Assembly (NCBI GenBank): GCA_035488075.1
Contig: DATHLO010000053.1
Coordinates: 1 to 26,796, forward strand
DNA: 26,796 bases
Origin: Steroidobacteraceae bacterium
Lineage (GTDB): Bacteria > Pseudomonadota > Gammaproteobacteria > Steroidobacterales > Steroidobacteraceae
Reading direction: 5' to 3'
Below the pieces are notes generated by a model. It saw nothing but the letters and a program-made list of their open reading frames with translations, had not been told where the DNA came from and made no database searches. Of the stretch, positions 1,765-8,901 are shown in pieces; positions within the stretch are counted from its first letter, which is position 1, and every line of letters begins with the position of its first letter. The position numbers were made by a program, and so were the translations under genes.

Positions 1765-4149
1765 TCAGATCGGGTCGTAGCAGCTCACGCTGATGGTCTG
1801 CGTCTGACCGGGGCTCACGCTGATGTCGCGGCGTACGTCGCGGTAGCCCTCGCGTGAACCGATCACCGTATAGCGGCCGGGTTTGAGGTCCACCTCGCGA
1901 CGCGTGAAGCTGCCGAAGGCGCCCACATTCATGATGGTCACCTGCGTGAAGCCATCGGACACCAGCGACAGGTGCACGGGGTGCTCGAACTCCGGCAGCA
2001 GCGCCGAGACGCGCGCCATCTGCAGCCGCAGCACCGGGCCCGGCGAGCCGATCTGCTGCGCGCCCTGCAGGAGCGTCGCCGCCTGCGCCCGCGCGTCCGC
2101 GGACGCCAGCAGGTCGGGTCGATCGATGATCGCCTGCAGGGAATCATTGAGCTCCAGTCGCCCCCGGGCCCGATCCCGGCCCTCCTGGGCGAAGGCCTGT
2201 GACGGATCGGAGCGCAAAATGGCGCTGTAGGCCGTCACCGCATCATCCCAGCGCTCGTCCGCCTCGGCGTCCTCGGCGCGCGTGCGCTGCGTGCCGAAGC
2301 CGCGCCCGCGCATGGCCGCATCGACCCGCCTGAGCCCGTCCGCAGCTTCCGCGCCGTTCGGGCGCACCGCGCGGGCGCGCTCGAATGCGACACGCGCCTC
2401 CTCGAGCCGGCCGGCGCCGAGTGCCGCAAAACCCTCGCCTGCCGCCTTGGCGTAGCGGTCATCGCCGAAGCCCTCGACGGCGGGCGCAGCTGCAGCGGCC
2501 CCCTTCGGGGCAGACGCCGCACCCTTTGTGCCGGTGCTCGCGCCCGTCCCTGCGGCCGCGGCGGTGGTGGCTGCGAGCTCACGCGCGCGGGCCTGCCCGG
2601 CGAGTGCGCGTTGGTCCTGCGGCGCGATGCGAACGGCGAGCTCGTAAGCCTGCAGCGCGAGCGTGCGCTCGTGGTCGGTGAGCGCGCGCTCCCCGGCGGC
2701 AAGTTCGGACGCCAGTGCCGCCGGCGCCGCCTGCTCGACGTTGTCGAGCAGCTGATTGGCCTCGACCATCTGCGTCTGCGCGCTCGCAACACCGCCCGCA
2801 TCGTGCGCGCCCTCCGCCTGTGCTGCCCGGGACTTGGCGGCGGCGAAGTCCTCTCCTGCCCAGATGCCCGCGCCGCGCGCCTCGAGCGCCGTGATGCGCT
2901 GCTCGAGCAGAATGTGGTCTGCTTTCAGCTGCGCCAGCGCGCTCGACTGCAAGGTGGCCGCAGCGCTCGGCGGCGGCGTCTGGGTGGCGGTGCCTGTGCC
3001 GGCCGGCGCCCCGCCCGGGAGCCAGCGCGGCATCCACAGGACGGCCGCGGCGACGACCGCCGCAAGTCCTGCGATGACAAGCAGCGCACGCGGCAGCCCA
3101 CTGCGCATCGGTTCAGGTCGGGAGCGCGGCAGCGGCGCCTCGCGCACCTCTTCCCAGATGCCGGCCCCATCGACATCTCCCGTGAAGGGGGTTGGCGTCA
3201 GCGGGGGCACCGCTTCGGCGGGCACCAGCGGCGGTGCAGCGTGCGGCGAGATCGGTGGCAGCGTGATGCGCTCCTGCGGCGGCACCGTCTCGTTCGCCGC
3301 GCCCGCGGGCGCTTCCTCGTCGAAGTCGAATGTCAGGGTGTCGTTGAGCGAGGCGTCGAGCTCGTCGATCACATCGCGCATGCTCGCCGGCCGGCGCTTC
3401 GGATCCTTCTCGAGCATGGCACCCACCAGGGTGGCCAGCTGCGGGGGAATCTGCTGTGCGGGCACGAGCGGCGGCACCGGCTCTTCCTGCACGCGCTTGG
3501 CATCAAACTGCGGATAGTGCGGCGGGTAGCGCGAGAGCAGCTCGTACGCAAGTGCCCCGAGTCCGTAGATGTCATCCCCGGGGGTCGGCGGCTCGCCGCG
3601 CAACTGCTCGGGGCTCGCGGTGAAGGGCGACAGGCCGCGCACCATCGAGTCCGTGCCCGGATCGAGCGAATCGCCGGAGACGCCGAAGTCGGCGAGCTTC
3701 ACGCGGCCGCGCTCATCTAACAGCACATTGCCGGGCTTAAGGTCGCGGTGGATGACCCCGCGCTCGTGGGCGTGCTCGAGCGCGCGGGCGACCTCGATCA
3801 GCACCGGGACGATCGTGAGGTAGCCCGCGCCGCGCAGGCGCTTCAGGTCCCCGCCCGTTGCCAGCTCCATGGGCAGAAGAAACGTCGTGCCTTCGCGCTC
3901 GGGCGCGAAGACCTTGAGGATGCCCGGATGATCCAGGCGGCTCGCGCTCTCGTACTCGTGCACCAGCGCGACCCACGCTGCGGCACTGCGTCCGGCGGAC
4001 GGATGCAGGATCTTGAGCGCGATATCCGTGCCGTTTTGCGGATCGAACGCGCGCCACACCTCGCCCTGCCCGCCGACGCCGAGTCGCTCGCGCAGGACGT
4101 AGCGGCTGTTCAGGAGCTGCCCGTTGTTTGCTGTCGCCGCCTCGTTCAT
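1765..4149 (-). CDS. Membrane-anchored Hanks-type Ser/Thr protein kinase with periplasmic helical/TPR-like region and C-terminal PEGA-like beta domain
   Basis: LGVGGQGEVW, IALK, HRDLKPGN, ADFG, SPEQ and DIYGLG, then a Pro-rich linker, a TM segment (ALLVIAGLAAVVAAAVLW), Ala-rich helices and the C-terminal VDLKPGRYTVIGSREGYRDV. Confidence 0.92.
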   Translation of the reverse strand: MNEAATANNGQLLNSRYVLRERLGVGGQGEVWRAFDPQNGTDIALKILHPSAGRSAAAWVALVHEYESASRLDHPGILKVFAPEREGTTFLLPMELATGGDLKRLRGAGYLTIVPVLIEVARALEHAHERGVIHRDLKPGNVLLDERGRVKLADFGVSGDSLDPGTDSMVRGLSPFTASPEQLRGEPPTPGDDIYGLGALAYELLSRYPPHYPQFDAKRVQEEPVPPLVPAQQIPPQLATLVGAMLEKDPKRRPASMRDVIDELDASLNDTLTFDFDEEAPAGAANETVPPQERITLPPISPHAAPPLVPAEAVPPLTPTPFTGDVDGAGIWEEVREAPLPRSRPEPMRSGLPRALLVIAGLAAVVAAAVLWMPRWLPGGAPAGTGTATQTPPPSAAATLQSSALAQLKADHILLEQRITALEARGAGIWAGEDFAAAKSRAAQAEGAHDAGGVASAQTQMVEANQLLDNVEQAAPAALASELAAGERALTDHERTLALQAYELAVRIAPQDQRALAGQARARELAATTAAAAGTGASTGTKGAASAPKGAAAAAPAVEGFGDDRYAKAAGEGFAALGAGRLEEARVAFERARAVRPNGAEAADGLRRVDAAMRGRGFGTQRTRAEDAEADERWDDAVTAYSAILRSDPSQAFAQEGRDRARGRLELNDSLQAIIDRPDLLASADARAQAATLLQGAQQIGSPGPVLRLQMARVSALLPEFEHPVHLSLVSDGFTQVTIMNVGAFGSFTRREVDLKPGRYTVIGSREGYRDVRRDISVSPGQTQTISVSCYDPI

Positions 4150-4304: not shown

Positions 4305-6425
4305 TTAGAGGCCCAGGGACAGCTGCGCGCCGGGCGGCGTCGGCGGGCGGAACAGCGTTGTGTTCAATTCGCCGCGGCGGGAAGCGTTGAGCCCGTGTCT
4401 GCGACAGGCGAGGTGGAAGCGGTTGCGCAAGAGCTCAGCGAACGGCCCCGTGCCGCGCATGCGCGTGCCGAAGCGCGGATCATTGTCGCGCCCGCCGCGC
4501 ATGTCCCGGATGAGCGACATCACGTGGCCTGCGCGCTGCGGATAGTGCTCCTGCAGCCACTCACGGAAGAGGTCCTTGATTTCATACGGCAGGCGCAGCA
4601 GCACGTAGCCTGCCCAGCCGGCCCCGGCCGCGGCGCACGCTTCGAGGATCGCCTCGATCTCGTGGTCATTCAGCGCCGGGATGACCGGGGCTACGAGTGC
4701 GCCGCTCGGAACTCCGGCGGCATTGAGCTCGCGCAGCGCGCGCAGCCGTGCCTGCGGGGCTGCCGCACGCGGCTCGAGCGTGCGCTTCAGCTCCGGGTCC
4801 AGTGTGGTAACGCTCACCGCAACACTCGCCAGCCCCTGCCCTGCCAGCTCCGCGAGCAGATCCAGATCGCGCATTACGAGCGCACCCTTCGTGATCACGG
4901 TGACCGGATGGCGCGTACGCACCAGCACTTCCAGGATCGAGCGCGTCACTTTCATGCGCCGCTCGACCGGCTGATACGGGTCGGTGTTGGCGCCGAGCGT
5001 GATGGGCTTGCAGACATAGCCCGGACGCGCGAGCTGCTTCTCGAGCACGGCGGCCGCATCGGCCTTGTAAAAAAGCCGGGTCTCGAAATCGAGACCCGGG
5101 GAGAGCCCCATGTACGCATGGCTCGGGCGCGCATAGCAGTTGTGGCTCACCACGCCGTTGGCGATGAAGTCCTCGGTACCCGTGGTGATGTCGTAGAGGC
5201 GCATCGTCTTTCCCAAAGGCTCGATGCTCACGACCCGAAGTTTGGCGGTGCTCTTGACGGCCTGCCCTGCGATGTCGCGTTTGCGCGTGATCGCAGGATC
5301 CATCATGTGAAAAAAGCGCAGGTGTTCACGCAACCCACCCACGATGCGCACGTTAGCAGTAGGCTTGGTCTCTTCGCGCGGCCGCTGCTCCACGACAAAC
5401 CGGAAGTCGAACGCCCGCAACGCGTCACCCATCCTGCGGATGATTTCTGGATCCGTGTTGGGAATCCGCATAATCCCGCCGCTATAGCTGCCCTCGGCGT
5501 CAAAGATCCCGGCCAGGAAGCCCGCCTGCCAGGCACGGGGCGGCGAATCCGGCCACGCGATGAGCTCGCGAATCCCATTTACTTTATCGCGGCTTTGAGC
5601 ACCGATGGCCTGCATCGGACGCACCGTGCCGGCGAAAGCAAACTGCTTGGTCTCAATGTATCGGTATGACAACCAGGTTCGCGCACGATTGAGTGCTTCG
5701 AGATCACACAACGCGAGACGAAAGTGGTGTGTCGTACCCAGGCAAGGCCAACCCGGACGCAAGTAGGTCTGCGTCCTCACCATCCCGTCGCCGCGAATCA
5801 GCCCGCACAAGTACCCCGTCCGATAATCGGCATCCTGGTACACGGGAGCTGCGAATGCGCCCGTCCCCATGAGTTTGTTGTTGGTCGTGAGATGCGGTCG
5901 TCGCGCTCGGCCGCATTCGGTGCCGGTGATGAATTTCCAGCCCCGATCGGTCAGGAAACGATGGTCAGGGCCGACCGTCAGTTGCGTGTCGTCTTCGAGC
6001 GTGATGCGAAACGCGGGCTTAATGACACCCCAGCGCGCGAGGACCTGGGTTCGCACGTAGCGCCGGTAGGCGCCCCGGCGCTGTGTCCCGTAAATCCAGT
6101 CGCCCACCCTCAGCTTCGCGAGTTCTCGCGTCGAGCCGTCGCCCATGAGGATCGGCGTTTCACCCCATTGGCAGTACAGGCACGCATGTTCGCATCCCCT
6201 GTACGGATTGATGGATTGCTCGAACGGAATGTCCGGGGAATCGTTGGTGGTGATGATCTCGCGGGCGCGCTCGGGCTCGAGCGTCGTGGCAATGCTCTCG
6301 ATTGCCTCCTCGAGGTACCAACCGTCATCCGCCGGGGCGAGCTGCTGCCGGTCGAAGCGTCCCGGCGGGTTCGAAAGGGCGCCCCTTCCCTTGAACGACT
6401 GCCTTCCGATGAGCGTGCGGCGCAT
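4305..6425 (-). CDS. PA0069/Rv2578c-family radical SAM protein (spore photoproduct lyase-like) precursor containing an intein; 361 aa after splicing
   Basis: N-extein KGRGA...NDSPDIPFEQSINPYRGCEHACLY and C-extein CYARPSHAYMGLSPGLDFET...GANTDPYQP...ITK...EPRA rejoin to give CEHACLYC (CxxxCxxC). Confidence 0.93.
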   Translation of the reverse strand: MRRTLIGRQSFKGRGALSNPPGRFDRQQLAPADDGWYLEEAIESIATTLEPERAREIITTNDSPDIPFEQSINPYRGCEHACLYCQWGETPILMGDGSTRELAKLRVGDWIYGTQRRGAYRRYVRTQVLARWGVIKPAFRITLEDDTQLTVGPDHRFLTDRGWKFITGTECGRARRPHLTTNNKLMGTGAFAAPVYQDADYRTGYLCGLIRGDGMVRTQTYLRPGWPCLGTTHHFRLALCDLEALNRARTWLSYRYIETKQFAFAGTVRPMQAIGAQSRDKVNGIRELIAWPDSPPRAWQAGFLAGIFDAEGSYSGGIMRIPNTDPEIIRRMGDALRAFDFRFVVEQRPREETKPTANVRIVGGLREHLRFFHMMDPAITRKRDIAGQAVKSTAKLRVVSIEPLGKTMRLYDITTGTEDFIANGVVSHNCYARPSHAYMGLSPGLDFETRLFYKADAAAVLEKQLARPGYVCKPITLGANTDPYQPVERRMKVTRSILEVLVRTRHPVTVITKGALVMRDLDLLAELAGQGLASVAVSVTTLDPELKRTLEPRAAAPQARLRALRELNAAGVPSGALVAPVIPALNDHEIEAILEACAAAGAGWAGYVLLRLPYEIKDLFREWLQEHYPQRAGHVMSLIRDMRGGRDNDPRFGTRMRGTGPFAELLRNRFHLACRRHGLNASRRGELNTTLFRPPTPPGAQLSLGL
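5139..6173 (-). mobile_element. Intein (345 aa) with LAGLIDADG homing endonuclease
   Basis: Block A CQWGETPILMGDG, block B GPDHRFLT, endonuclease motifs YLCGLIRGDG and FLAGIFDAEG, blocks F/G LYDITTGTEDFIANGVVSHN followed by Cys+1. The insert is 1035 bp and in frame. Confidence 0.95.
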
Positions 6426-6430
6426 GGCAG

Positions 6431-6450
6431 TACTGTATATAAATACAGTA
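6431..6450. promoter_or_regulatory. LexA (SOS) box
   Basis: TACTGTATATAAATACAGTA, one mismatch from the consensus TACTGTATATATATACAGTA, 5 bp upstream of the radical SAM ATG. Confidence 0.93.
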
Positions 6451-6460
6451 TTGGTGGCAA
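6432..6460 (-). promoter_or_regulatory. sigma70-type promoter overlapping the SOS box
   Basis: TTGCCA (6460-6455), 17 bp spacer, TACAGT (6437-6432), then 6 nt to the ATG. No Shine-Dalgarno. Confidence 0.6.
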
Positions 6461-6494
6461 CGGCAATTTCTGCTGCAAAAGCGTGGAAATACCC

Positions 6495-6884
6495 CTATTT
6501 CACGAGGCGCAGCGAGAACGGATAACGGTAATGCTCACCCTCGCTCGCCTTGATGGCGGCGATAAGCGTGAACACGAGCCACACCACAAAAAGTGCCGTG
6601 CCGAGGATGAATCCCACGAACACCAGCATCAGCGCCATGCACACCAGAGCTGCGAGCACGACCGTGATGTTGAAGTTCAGCGCCTCGCGCGCGTGCTCGG
6701 CGACGAACGCCGACGAATCCCGACGCGCGAGCCACACGACCAGCGGTCCAATGATGCACCCGAGAAGCCACACCACGACGCCGGTGAGCGCGGACAGATG
6801 CGCGAGCATCCCCCAGGTGCGCTCGTTCTCGGTCGGCGCCGCAGCGGGTGCCTCAGTGGCGCTCGGGTCGCTCGGGTCGCTCAT
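6495..6884 (-). CDS. DUF4870 family membrane protein
   Basis: ERTWGMLAHLS...GPLVVWL...FVAEHAREALNFNIT...AAIKASEGEHYRYPFSLRLVK pattern with three hydrophobic segments. Confidence 0.88.
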   Translation of the reverse strand: MSDPSDPSATEAPAAAPTENERTWGMLAHLSALTGVVVWLLGCIIGPLVVWLARRDSSAFVAEHAREALNFNITVVLAALVCMALMLVFVGFILGTALFVVWLVFTLIAAIKASEGEHYRYPFSLRLVK

Positions 6885-6924: not shown

Positions 6925-8901
6925 TTACGGTGACAACTTCACTTTGATGCCCGCGAAGACACCGAAGCCTGGTTGCAGAAAGCCCACCGGATTTTGGTAG
7001 TGCCGGTCCGTCAGGTTGTCGATGCGTCCAAACAGCGCCAGGTGTTTGCTCAGATCGTAGGTCGCGGCGAGATTGACCGTCGTGTAACCCGGCGCATCCA
7101 GGCGTGGAACCGAAAAGTCGCGGTTGCCGTCCACCCAGGTGCTGACCCACAGGACATCCAGGTTGAGGAGCCACGCGTGGGTCGCCTGCCAGGACGCATT
7201 AAGGGTGCCCTTGTTTTTCGGGCGCCGCAGCAGCTCCTCATGCAGCGCATCATCGCTCGCCTCGGTGTACGTGTAGTCGGCCCGCAGGGTGAGTGTCGGC
7301 AGCGGCTGGTAGGCGATGAAGCTCTCGACGCCCTCGGTGGTGGCACGGCCGATGTTGGCATAGGTCGTGCCGGTCACATCGGTCGTGATCAGGTCGCGGA
7401 TGCGGATGTAGTAGAGCGTCACACCCACGCGCAGCACGTCCTGGGCGAAGCCCTGCTCGATGCCGAGGTCATAGCCGGTGCTGGTTTCGGGCTGCAGATT
7501 GGGATTGGCAAAGAAGAACGGCGGGAAGTCCTGGTAGAGCTCGCTCAAGGTCGGTGCCTTGAAGCCGGTGCCGACGGAGGCTTTGAGCTTGGTATCGGTC
7601 GCGCTGATCACCCAGGCGGGCGCGAAACGGTAGGTCACCTTGCTGCCGAAACGGCTGTTGTCGTCGTAGCGCACGTTGGCTGCGGAAAACCAGTGCTCGC
7701 CGATCTGCGACTGCAGCTCCGCGTACGCGGAGCTGATGTGCACGTCGGCACTGATCGGCTCGCTGATCTCGTCGCGCTCGTACTCGGCCCCCAGCACCAC
7801 GGTCTCGTCGCTCGCAGCCTTGATGTTGCCCTGCCAGTCGGCCTTGCGCCGCTCGCCGGTGTTGAGCGCCGCCGGGGTCTGCGGCTGCACGGTATCGGTG
7901 CGCTCGTGGGTGTAGGCGAGCCCGAGCGTCTGATCAAGGAGGCCGTCGAAGCTGTTGGCATGCGCGCTGAGGCGCGTGAAGTACTCATCGGTCGCGGCAG
8001 TGGTCTGCTCGGGAGCGGGGAAGCCCGCGTAGGGGGGCAAGGGACTGTAGTCCTCGCCGGTGGTGTGCAGGTGAACGTCGGTGTAGCGCCCGATCAGTCC
8101 CAGATCGAAGTTCGGCGTGACATCGAGTCCGAGCTTGGTCGAGAAAGTCAGGTTGTCGTCGTAGTCATCGTTGCGCGCCTCGCCCGGCTGCAGCAGGTCA
8201 AGCGGCGTCACCGGTACGGCACCTGCGTGAAAGTGGATGACGTTGGCGCTGTAGTGAAACGCGTCCTGCGAGCCGCTGATACTGCCGCTCTGATTGAACG
8301 TGTCGAAAGAGCCGCCCTCGAGCGCGCCGGTGAGCTGCGTCGGTCCTGCGCCCGATTTGGTGATGACGTTGATCACCCCACCGATGGCGTCGGAGCCGTA
8401 CAGGCCGCTTTGCGGGCCGCGCAGCACCTCGACGCGCTCGATGTCCGCCGTGAGCAGCTGCCCGAAGTCGAACGCCCCCGTGGAGTTACTGGGGTCACTG
8501 ATGTCGACGCCGTCCACGAAGACCTTGGTGTGATTGGAGTTGGTGCCGCGCATGAACACCGAGGTCACCCCACCGGGTCCGCCGGTCTGCACCACGTTCA
8601 GGCCCGGAATGTCCTTGAGCACGTCCGCGAACGTGCGCTCCTGGCGCGCCTCGATGTCAGCGGCGGTGACGAGGGTGAGGCTACTGCCGACCTCAAGCTG
8701 CGGCGTGGGAATACGCGTTGCCGTGATCACGACGGCCTGCAGCTCGTCCGGATCGGCGGCGCGTACGGCGCCGGCGGCGACAGCGAGGGCGCAGAGTGCC
8801 GCCCAGGGAAGAACTGGCGCGCGGGTTACCCGTTGCCAGCCGTGCGCGCACGGCCGTGCGCCGCGAACCTGCGCGCGGTACGCATTGAGACCTGTTGTCA
8901 T
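6925..8901 (-). CDS. TonB-dependent outer membrane receptor, BtuB-like (probable cobalamin uptake)
   Basis: Signal peptide ending ...AVRA, TonB-box-like LQAVVITAT, plug motifs DIPGL, VFMRG and IERVEVLRGPQSGLYGSDAIGGVINVIT, and barrel-end NLTDRHY. Lies directly downstream of a cobalamin riboswitch. Confidence 0.9.
   Translation of the reverse strand: MTTGLNAYRAQVRGARPCAHGWQRVTRAPVLPWAALCALAVAAGAVRAADPDELQAVVITATRIPTPQLEVGSSLTLVTAADIEARQERTFADVLKDIPGLNVVQTGGPGGVTSVFMRGTNSNHTKVFVDGVDISDPSNSTGAFDFGQLLTADIERVEVLRGPQSGLYGSDAIGGVINVITKSGAGPTQLTGALEGGSFDTFNQSGSISGSQDAFHYSANVIHFHAGAVPVTPLDLLQPGEARNDDYDDNLTFSTKLGLDVTPNFDLGLIGRYTDVHLHTTGEDYSPLPPYAGFPAPEQTTAATDEYFTRLSAHANSFDGLLDQTLGLAYTHERTDTVQPQTPAALNTGERRKADWQGNIKAASDETVVLGAEYERDEISEPISADVHISSAYAELQSQIGEHWFSAANVRYDDNSRFGSKVTYRFAPAWVISATDTKLKASVGTGFKAPTLSELYQDFPPFFFANPNLQPETSTGYDLGIEQGFAQDVLRVGVTLYYIRIRDLITTDVTGTTYANIGRATTEGVESFIAYQPLPTLTLRADYTYTEASDDALHEELLRRPKNKGTLNASWQATHAWLLNLDVLWVSTWVDGNRDFSVPRLDAPGYTTVNLAATYDLSKHLALFGRIDNLTDRHYQNPVGFLQPGFGVFAGIKVKLSP

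Follow-up and report, generated by a model that had tools for sequence, protein, structure and literature searches.

An intein in a PA0069-family radical SAM gene

We analysed a stretch of 26,796 nucleotides (hereafter the window), positions 1 to 26,796 of contig DATHLO010000053.1 in the GenBank assembly GCA_035488075.1, from a Steroidobacteraceae bacterium (Gammaproteobacteria). The window contains a gene for a radical S-adenosylmethionine (SAM) protein that is interrupted by an intein and preceded by a LexA box (Table 1). Translation of the gene yields a stop-free precursor of 706 aa, and a profile search matches it to NF033668 (the PA0069 family) in two stretches with 492.5 bits, the cut-off being 360 bits. 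The flanking parts of the protein (i.e., the two exteins) are contiguous on this profile, the first ending at position 73 and the second starting at position 74. Removal of the residues between them restores the CxxxCxxC motif that binds the [4Fe-4S] cluster, with the mature protein reading C78-EHA-C82-LY-C. Based on the profile score and the restored motif, we assign the host protein to the PA0069 family.

At its two splice junctions the precursor reads NPYRG-C78-EHA-C82-LY / C85-QWGETPILMGDG ... FIANGVVSHN429 / C430-YARPSHAY, where slashes mark the junctions here and below. Ten empty alleles from congeners (i.e., species sharing the GTDB genus of the source bacterium) read GCxxxCx[YF]-C[YF]ARP[ST]HAY without interruption. 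These uninterrupted alleles fix both junctions to the residue and identify the +1 Cys as the third cluster cysteine. The intein proper comprises residues 85-429 (345 aa) and stands between Tyr84 and the third motif cysteine. An initial annotation, made from the sequence without database searches, had placed an intein within the radical SAM motif at 5136-6194, a span that runs exactly from codon C430 to codon C78; the reading frame, the junctions, the profile matches and the fold described below all agree with it, and the empty alleles bear out its proposal that the +1 nucleophile is the third cluster ligand. It had also pointed to Cys82 at position -3 from Cys1 of the intein, which is indeed the arrangement found (C82-L-Y-C85). 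In the linear precursor, Cys1 itself restores the C-x3-C-x2-C spacing (C78, C82, C85). The initial annotation's view that no cluster site can form before splicing is therefore an assumption that goes beyond the sequence.

Table 1. Coordinates in the window of the precursor gene, its exteins, the intein and its motifs, and the upstream box.
Feature	Position	Strand	Remarks
Precursor gene, PA0069-family (COG1533/SplB-like) radical SAM protein, intein-interrupted	4305..6425	-	706 codons + stop; NF033668 492.5 bits
N-extein, residues 1-84, ends C78-EHA-C82-LY	6174..6425	-	NF033668 profile 1-73
First two cluster cysteines, codons of C78 and C82	6192-6194 (C78); 6180-6182 (C82)	-	Within N-extein
Intein, HINT splicing domain split by two-motif LAGLIDADG homing endonuclease domain	5139..6173	-	Junctions, profiles, alignment, model
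Block A, C85 (Cys1)-QWGETPILMGDG	6135..6173	-	Cys1 invariant across relatives examined
Block B, LTVGPDH155RFLT	5949..5981	-	His invariant
LAGLIDADG motif 1, GYLCGLIRGD213G	5784..5816	-	Catalytic Asp present
LAGLIDADG motif 2, GFLAGIFDAE311G	5490..5522	-	Catalytic Glu present
Blocks F and G, LYD412ITTGT ... FIANGVVSH428N429	5139..5198	-	Block F Asp, penultimate His, terminal Asn
Cys430, +1 nucleophile, third Cys of CxxxCxxC after splicing	5136..5138	-	Empty-allele comparison
C-extein, residues 430-706, remaining radical SAM barrel	4308..5138	-	NF033668 profile 74-347, 406.6 bits; Pfam Radical_SAM
LexA (SOS) box, CTGTATATAAATACAG	6433..6448	.	8 nt upstream of ATG; sole match in window

Profile searches with the precursor returned TIGR01443 (intein_Cterm) above its cut-off and Pfam LAGLIDADG_3 with 30.5 bits (cut-off 22.5). 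An alignment with 26 diverse relatives was examined for invariant columns, and these comprise Cys1, H155, the Gly-D213 pair of the first LAGLIDADG motif, D309 and G312 of the second, D412 and the terminal His-Asn. The splicing set of Cys1, H155, D412, the His-Asn pair and Cys+1 likewise shows no variation in ten congeners, in 27 diverse members of the clade, in the 79 of 80 genome loci with both junctions readable and in 39 of 39 cluster representatives with both ends. All residues expected of a class 1 intein are present (C85, C430, H155, D412, H428 and N429), as are the two helices with acidic ends (D213 and E311) that characterise a double-motif LAGLIDADG enzyme. One position in block B departs from the usual pattern, with Gly where Thr/Ser is common, three residues before the His; among relatives, Gly is found in 125 of 196 and Ser in 71 of 196.

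We then compared structures. The AlphaFold model of the intein, built on the 26-relative alignment, has a mean predicted local distance difference test (pLDDT) score of 94.5 and a predicted template modelling (pTM) score of 0.90. Its best matches in the PDB are TliVMA, PI-PfuI and PI-SceI (Foldseek E 1e-13 to 1e-14), and its endonuclease domain matches I-DmoI with a template modelling score (TM-score), by target, of 0.7-0.8. PI-SceI, PI-PfuI and TliVMA (PDB 1vde, 1dq3 and 7qsu) together with I-DmoI (2vs7 and 1b24) exhibit the same architecture of HINT and monomeric double-LAGLIDADG domains, but they share only 13-16% sequence identity with this intein and have other host genes and other targets. 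A phmmer search of the intein against PDB sequences gave no match, the likeness being visible by fold comparison. The G+C content is 61.6% in the intein, 67.1% in the exteins and 68.6% in the window; the low value of the intein is compatible with a foreign origin or with weaker codon adaptation. No second copy of the intein is found in the genome of the window. Judged by its residues and its predicted fold, the element is a canonical class 1 intein with a nested LAGLIDADG homing endonuclease.

The conserved residues suggest how the precursor would mature. Splicing would start with an N-S acyl shift at Cys85, the resulting thioester would be attacked by Cys430, Asn429 would cyclise with the assistance of His428, and an S-N shift would then join Tyr84 to Cys430. 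The expected products are a 361-aa enzyme with the restored C78-x3-C82-x2-C motif and a free endonuclease of 345 aa, which could cut empty alleles so that the intein would be copied in.

Distribution of the intein among alleles, genomes and hosts

We assessed the occupancy of the insertion site at increasing taxonomic distance. Among 24 species of the same GTDB genus, nine full-length intein alleles were found besides that of the window, ten alleles are empty and one is split by a stop and frameshifts; the remaining species gave no match or a partial match only. In a family sample of 250 genomes evenly drawn from 40 genera (genome G276 left out), at least 46 of the roughly 197 genomes with the gene carry the intein at this site (about 23%). 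All eight genomes with the gene from other families of the order lack it. The initial annotation had proposed aligning homologues to see how far the insertion site extends in Proteobacteria; the genome scan described below finds it occupied in Steroidobacteraceae and in Burkholderiales/Usitatibacter. The intein is rare elsewhere in the class, with only 2 further carriers among 400 evenly sampled genomes. On a maximum-likelihood tree of the exteins, the presence of the intein requires 8 changes for 10 carriers, compared with a mean of 8.5 when labels are shuffled, and at least four of these changes are forced by well-supported branches. A comparison of the 30 nt on each side of the insertion point revealed no clear difference between intein-bearing and empty alleles in terms of co-conversion or recoding. 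A recent acquisition at this locus was considered and rejected: the synonymous divergence (dS) to the nearest relative is equal for the intein (0.42) and the extein (0.40), and the intein thus predates the split from this relative.

The alleles that carry the intein differ in the state of the endonuclease. Two full-length inteins of sister genera (L010 in genome G024 and L043 in G227) have both catalytic residues replaced (Asp to Ala/Gly and Glu to Gly) and keep the splicing residues. In sister lineages, partial loss of the endonuclease has left intein lengths of 252 and 286 aa; smaller still, at 155-175 aa, are the mini-inteins at this site in sister genera (L030-L036, in G081, G205, G149, G223, G098, G264 and G180). 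The deletion borders of the mini-inteins differ, implying several independent losses of the endonuclease. None of these decayed alleles and mini-inteins has lost Cys1, Cys+1, the His of block B, the Asp of block F or the His-Asn pair. About 95% of the 196 full-length relatives have retained the catalytic Asp/Glu. Ratios of nonsynonymous to synonymous divergence (dN/dS) were calculated for each part of the gene relative to its three closest intein-bearing relatives, where dS is unsaturated (0.4-0.8). They are lowest in the exteins (0.07-0.09), reach about 0.10 in the splicing domain and rise to 0.14-0.20 in the endonuclease domain. These ratios indicate that the endonuclease is under purifying selection. 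Together with the coexistence of empty alleles, they lend indirect support to the predicted cleavage of the empty site. Additionally, some alleles are spread over two frames or contain TGA stops (L021 in G009, L038 in G079, L041 in G105 and L042 in G061); these breaks may represent gene decay or indel errors of long-read metagenome-assembled genomes (MAGs).

The homing cycle of inteins and group I introns, in which invasion is followed by fixation, decay of the endonuclease and loss, is an established model. All of its stages coexist here in one family, with empty alleles, intact inteins, inactivated endonucleases, partial deletions and mini-inteins side by side. Nothing sets this element apart from the model, the cycle being read in this case from the distribution of alleles.

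Next, we looked beyond the family. The profile NF038136 describes an 'intein-containing Rv2578c family radical SAM protein' and has a whole-protein cut-off of 700 bits. The intein alone matches positions 76-334 of this profile end-to-end (228.6 bits, E 1.7e-67) and the exteins of the window abut positions 75 and 335, from which it follows that the two inteins are homologous and occupy the same site. The whole precursor fails the cut-off with 477.8 bits because its exteins are of the PA0069 type. Inteins of the Rv2578c family accordingly have in common with that of the window the insertion point, the Cys1/His-Asn/Cys+1 chemistry and the LAGLIDADG endonuclease, but their host (NF038135) differs from the proteobacterial PA0069 family (NF033668) found here. 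A published census of inteins lists this host (SplB, COG1533) only for Actinobacteria (Novikova et al., PMC4760082), in line with the statement of the initial annotation that inteins of this enzyme family are known mainly from that phylum; NF038136 gives the same picture. Our literature search on inteins in radical SAM/SplB proteins returned no publication that describes this site in Proteobacteria.

A scan of one genome per species identified at least 353 loci. Taxa and identities were taken from the best 80 of them, which come from Steroidobacteraceae, Burkholderiales/Usitatibacter, many Actinomycetota (Solirubrobacterales, Micromonospora, Pseudonocardiaceae and Conexibacter), Gemmatimonadota, Omnitrophota, Myxococcales and Gemmataceae. 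Both junctions were readable in 79 of these loci, and all 79 read CxxxCxx/C...HN/C. Identity to the intein of the window is nearly flat regardless of the host (52-65%). More specifically, it is 53-59% in Actinomycetota, where the C-extein is 32-46% identical, and 52-65% in Proteobacteria, where the C-extein is 55-75% identical. Across phyla the intein is thus more similar than the host gene, which points to transfer.

We also searched 1.84 billion cluster representatives and obtained 1655 clusters at E<=1e-3, of which 266 were at E<=1e-30. Additional hosts among these representatives include DUF5131 (Gp37/Gp68-like), B12-binding radical SAM and other radical SAM proteins; in DUF5131 and B12-binding hosts too, related inteins are found at CxxxCxx/C. 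The 39 representatives with both junctions all have the same Cys1/His-Asn/Cys+1 architecture. Taken together, the sequence comparisons indicate that the intein belongs to a large clade that is specialised on CxxxCxxC and has spread horizontally between phyla and between radical SAM families. In one B12-binding radical SAM protein (P0169, 821 aa), the intein stands before the second cysteine (RGCPYR/C...SHN/CNFC), implying that this clade can shift by one cluster cysteine. Four DUF5131 proteins (P0151, P0152, P0173 and P0176) have N-terminal ParB-like domains and carry the same intein at CxxxCxxC. Such DUF5131/ParB-like hosts resemble genes of phages or plasmids and might serve as vehicles of spread. 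A tblastn search of cultured phage genomes returned one weak match (24.9% identity, in a 'radical SAM protein-like' gene), and no phage vector can be named from it.

The LexA box and competing explanations

The box upstream of the gene is a perfect LexA box, the only CTGT-N8-ACAG in the window, and lies at about -23 from the start codon, in agreement with the SOS box of the initial annotation. It is kept upstream of intein-bearing and intein-less alleles alike, and also upstream of empty alleles in other families of the order. This conservation at intein-less alleles makes the box a property of the host gene that predates the intein. The arrangement of the upstream region points to a LexA-repressed mRNA without a leader. 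Regulation by SOS has already been described for splB-like radical SAM genes (PMC3323433, PMC3765255). A TTGCC/TTTAC-like -35 element is seen about 10 nt upstream of the box, and there is no room for a Shine-Dalgarno sequence (window 6423-6470, loci L002-L028); alleles of the genus and of further families in the order share this -35/LexA layout, whether or not they carry the intein. The neighbouring genes encode a Ser/Thr protein kinase with TPR and a PEGA-like tail (1765-4149, minus strand), a DUF4870 membrane protein (6495-6884, minus strand) and a TonB-dependent receptor (6925-8901, minus strand); all three have no obvious functional link to the radical SAM gene.

We consider, with a probability of about 0.86, that a selfish, mobile intein with an active homing cycle has inserted in an SOS-regulated PA0069-family gene before the third cluster cysteine. 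Because the host gene is LexA-repressed, the endonuclease too would be made only during the SOS response, i.e., after DNA damage, as RecA-dependent repair is induced. Such timing could favour homing and provides a testable idea on why inteins favour repair genes. Several points weigh against a selfish element. Splicing, endonuclease activity and homing are deduced from residues, fold and distribution. The Gly in place of Thr/Ser in block B could slow the first step, though 125 of the 196 relatives share it. Assembly errors may account for some of the 'broken' alleles, which stem from long-read MAGs, and co-conversion could blur the extein tree. Persistent mini-inteins could mean that the element is tolerated or useful, and the patchy distribution is compatible with a conditional benefit where the intein is present.

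The cysteines around the N-terminal junction raise the question of conditional splicing. In the intein of Pyrococcus abyssi MoaA, a native disulfide between Cys-3 and Cys1 blocks splicing until it is reduced (Callahan et al. 2011, as reviewed in PMC3922620 and PMC10663303), and the initial annotation was right in citing this precedent. Compared by description, both inteins interrupt a radical SAM enzyme and have an N-extein Cys at -3, but P. abyssi MoaA is archaeal and hyperthermophilic, and the disulfide control shown there corresponds here to a geometry read from sequence. By analogy, redox-sensitive splicing as in P. abyssi MoaA is plausible, and with four cysteines clustered at -7, -3, 1 and +1, splicing probably responds to oxidation or to thiophilic metals. 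The C(-3)/C1/C+1 arrangement is found in every clade member examined and in every host family. Furthermore, the host enzyme uses the cysteines at -3 and -7 as cluster ligands and has them in all alleles, with or without the intein, the one at +1 is likewise needed by the host, and Cys1 is universal in the clade; the geometry of a trap is therefore forced by the insertion site and carries no signal of selection. Sensitivity to oxidation or metals would thus be a generic by-product and not an adaptation of this locus. A broader idea, which we regard as unlikely, is that the whole CxxxCxx/C clade makes radical SAM maturation conditional, with the four thiols binding an iron-sulfur (Fe-S) cluster or metal or forming a disulfide, and with splicing proceeding only when the cell is reducing and cluster-replete. 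If this were true, both the activation of the enzyme and the release of the endonuclease would, in this SOS-controlled host, depend on DNA damage together with redox state.

The initial annotation went further and proposed a domesticated switch at this locus, in which a Cys82-Cys85 disulfide or a bound metal keeps the enzyme inactive until the cell is reducing, so that redox state would act alongside SOS control. In favour of such a switch, the clusters of radical SAM enzymes are oxygen-labile, the C(-3)-x-x-C1 geometry is present, the like geometry gives the splicing-blocking disulfide of P. abyssi MoaA (PMC3922620, PMC10663303), and mini-inteins without endonuclease persist in sister genera. 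The distribution speaks otherwise, since the intein is absent from about half of the congeners, from some three quarters of the family and from all eight genomes with the gene in other families of the order, and the carriers are unclustered on the host-gene tree. In addition, the endonuclease is under purifying selection and keeps its catalytic residues, which would be superfluous for a mere switch; sister alleles have decayed; and the intein crosses phyla with the same geometry in every host family of the clade, the -3 and -7 cysteines being set by the enzyme motif in all alleles. Domestication entails fixation in a lineage, independence from homing and evolution linked to the host, and we find a polymorphic element that is random on the extein tree and whose divergence is decoupled from that of the host gene. 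The two-input control envisaged in the same annotation finds no support as a design either, since the LexA box predates the intein and is equally conserved at intein-less alleles; a combined response would be at most an accident of the intein landing in an SOS gene. For these reasons we judge a domesticated switch unlikely.

Gating by a cluster or metal is very unlikely in our view. Here C78, C82 and Cys1, possibly with Cys+1, would bind Fe-S or Zn/Cu and thereby sequester the Cys1 thiol. The linear C78-x3-C82-x2-C85 spacing is kept in the precursor and in all clade members, and Zn and Cu are established inhibitors of inteins through the catalytic Cys/His (review PMC4031507). This proposal is, however, a purely structural speculation; the radical SAM barrel may not fold round the motif with 345 residues inserted, and the arrangement is again forced by the insertion site. 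Finally, a dead or decaying element that no longer splices and leaves the gene effectively a pseudogene is very improbable: block B lacks the usual Thr/Ser and the G009 congener allele and a few family alleles are split by stops or frameshifts, but Gly is the majority state of the clade in block B, all catalytic splice residues are intact, dN/dS is low in the exteins (0.07-0.09) and the splicing domain (about 0.10), and the 706-codon frame is open; the pseudogene reading was rejected on the open frame and the low extein dN/dS.

Implications for the family

Taken as a single locus, the finding is ordinary: the intein is of the selfish kind, and its site has already been annotated in a sister enzyme family. 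A redox trap, if true, would be a property of the whole clade and not of this gene. The published host range of the SplB/Rv2578c intein, limited to Actinobacteria, now gains the proteobacterial PA0069 family. In the Steroidobacteraceae, a gammaproteobacterial family so labelled in public records, the intein is common, about one sampled species in four carrying it. With all stages of the homing cycle found together, the Steroidobacteraceae offer a natural system for intein gain, decay and loss.

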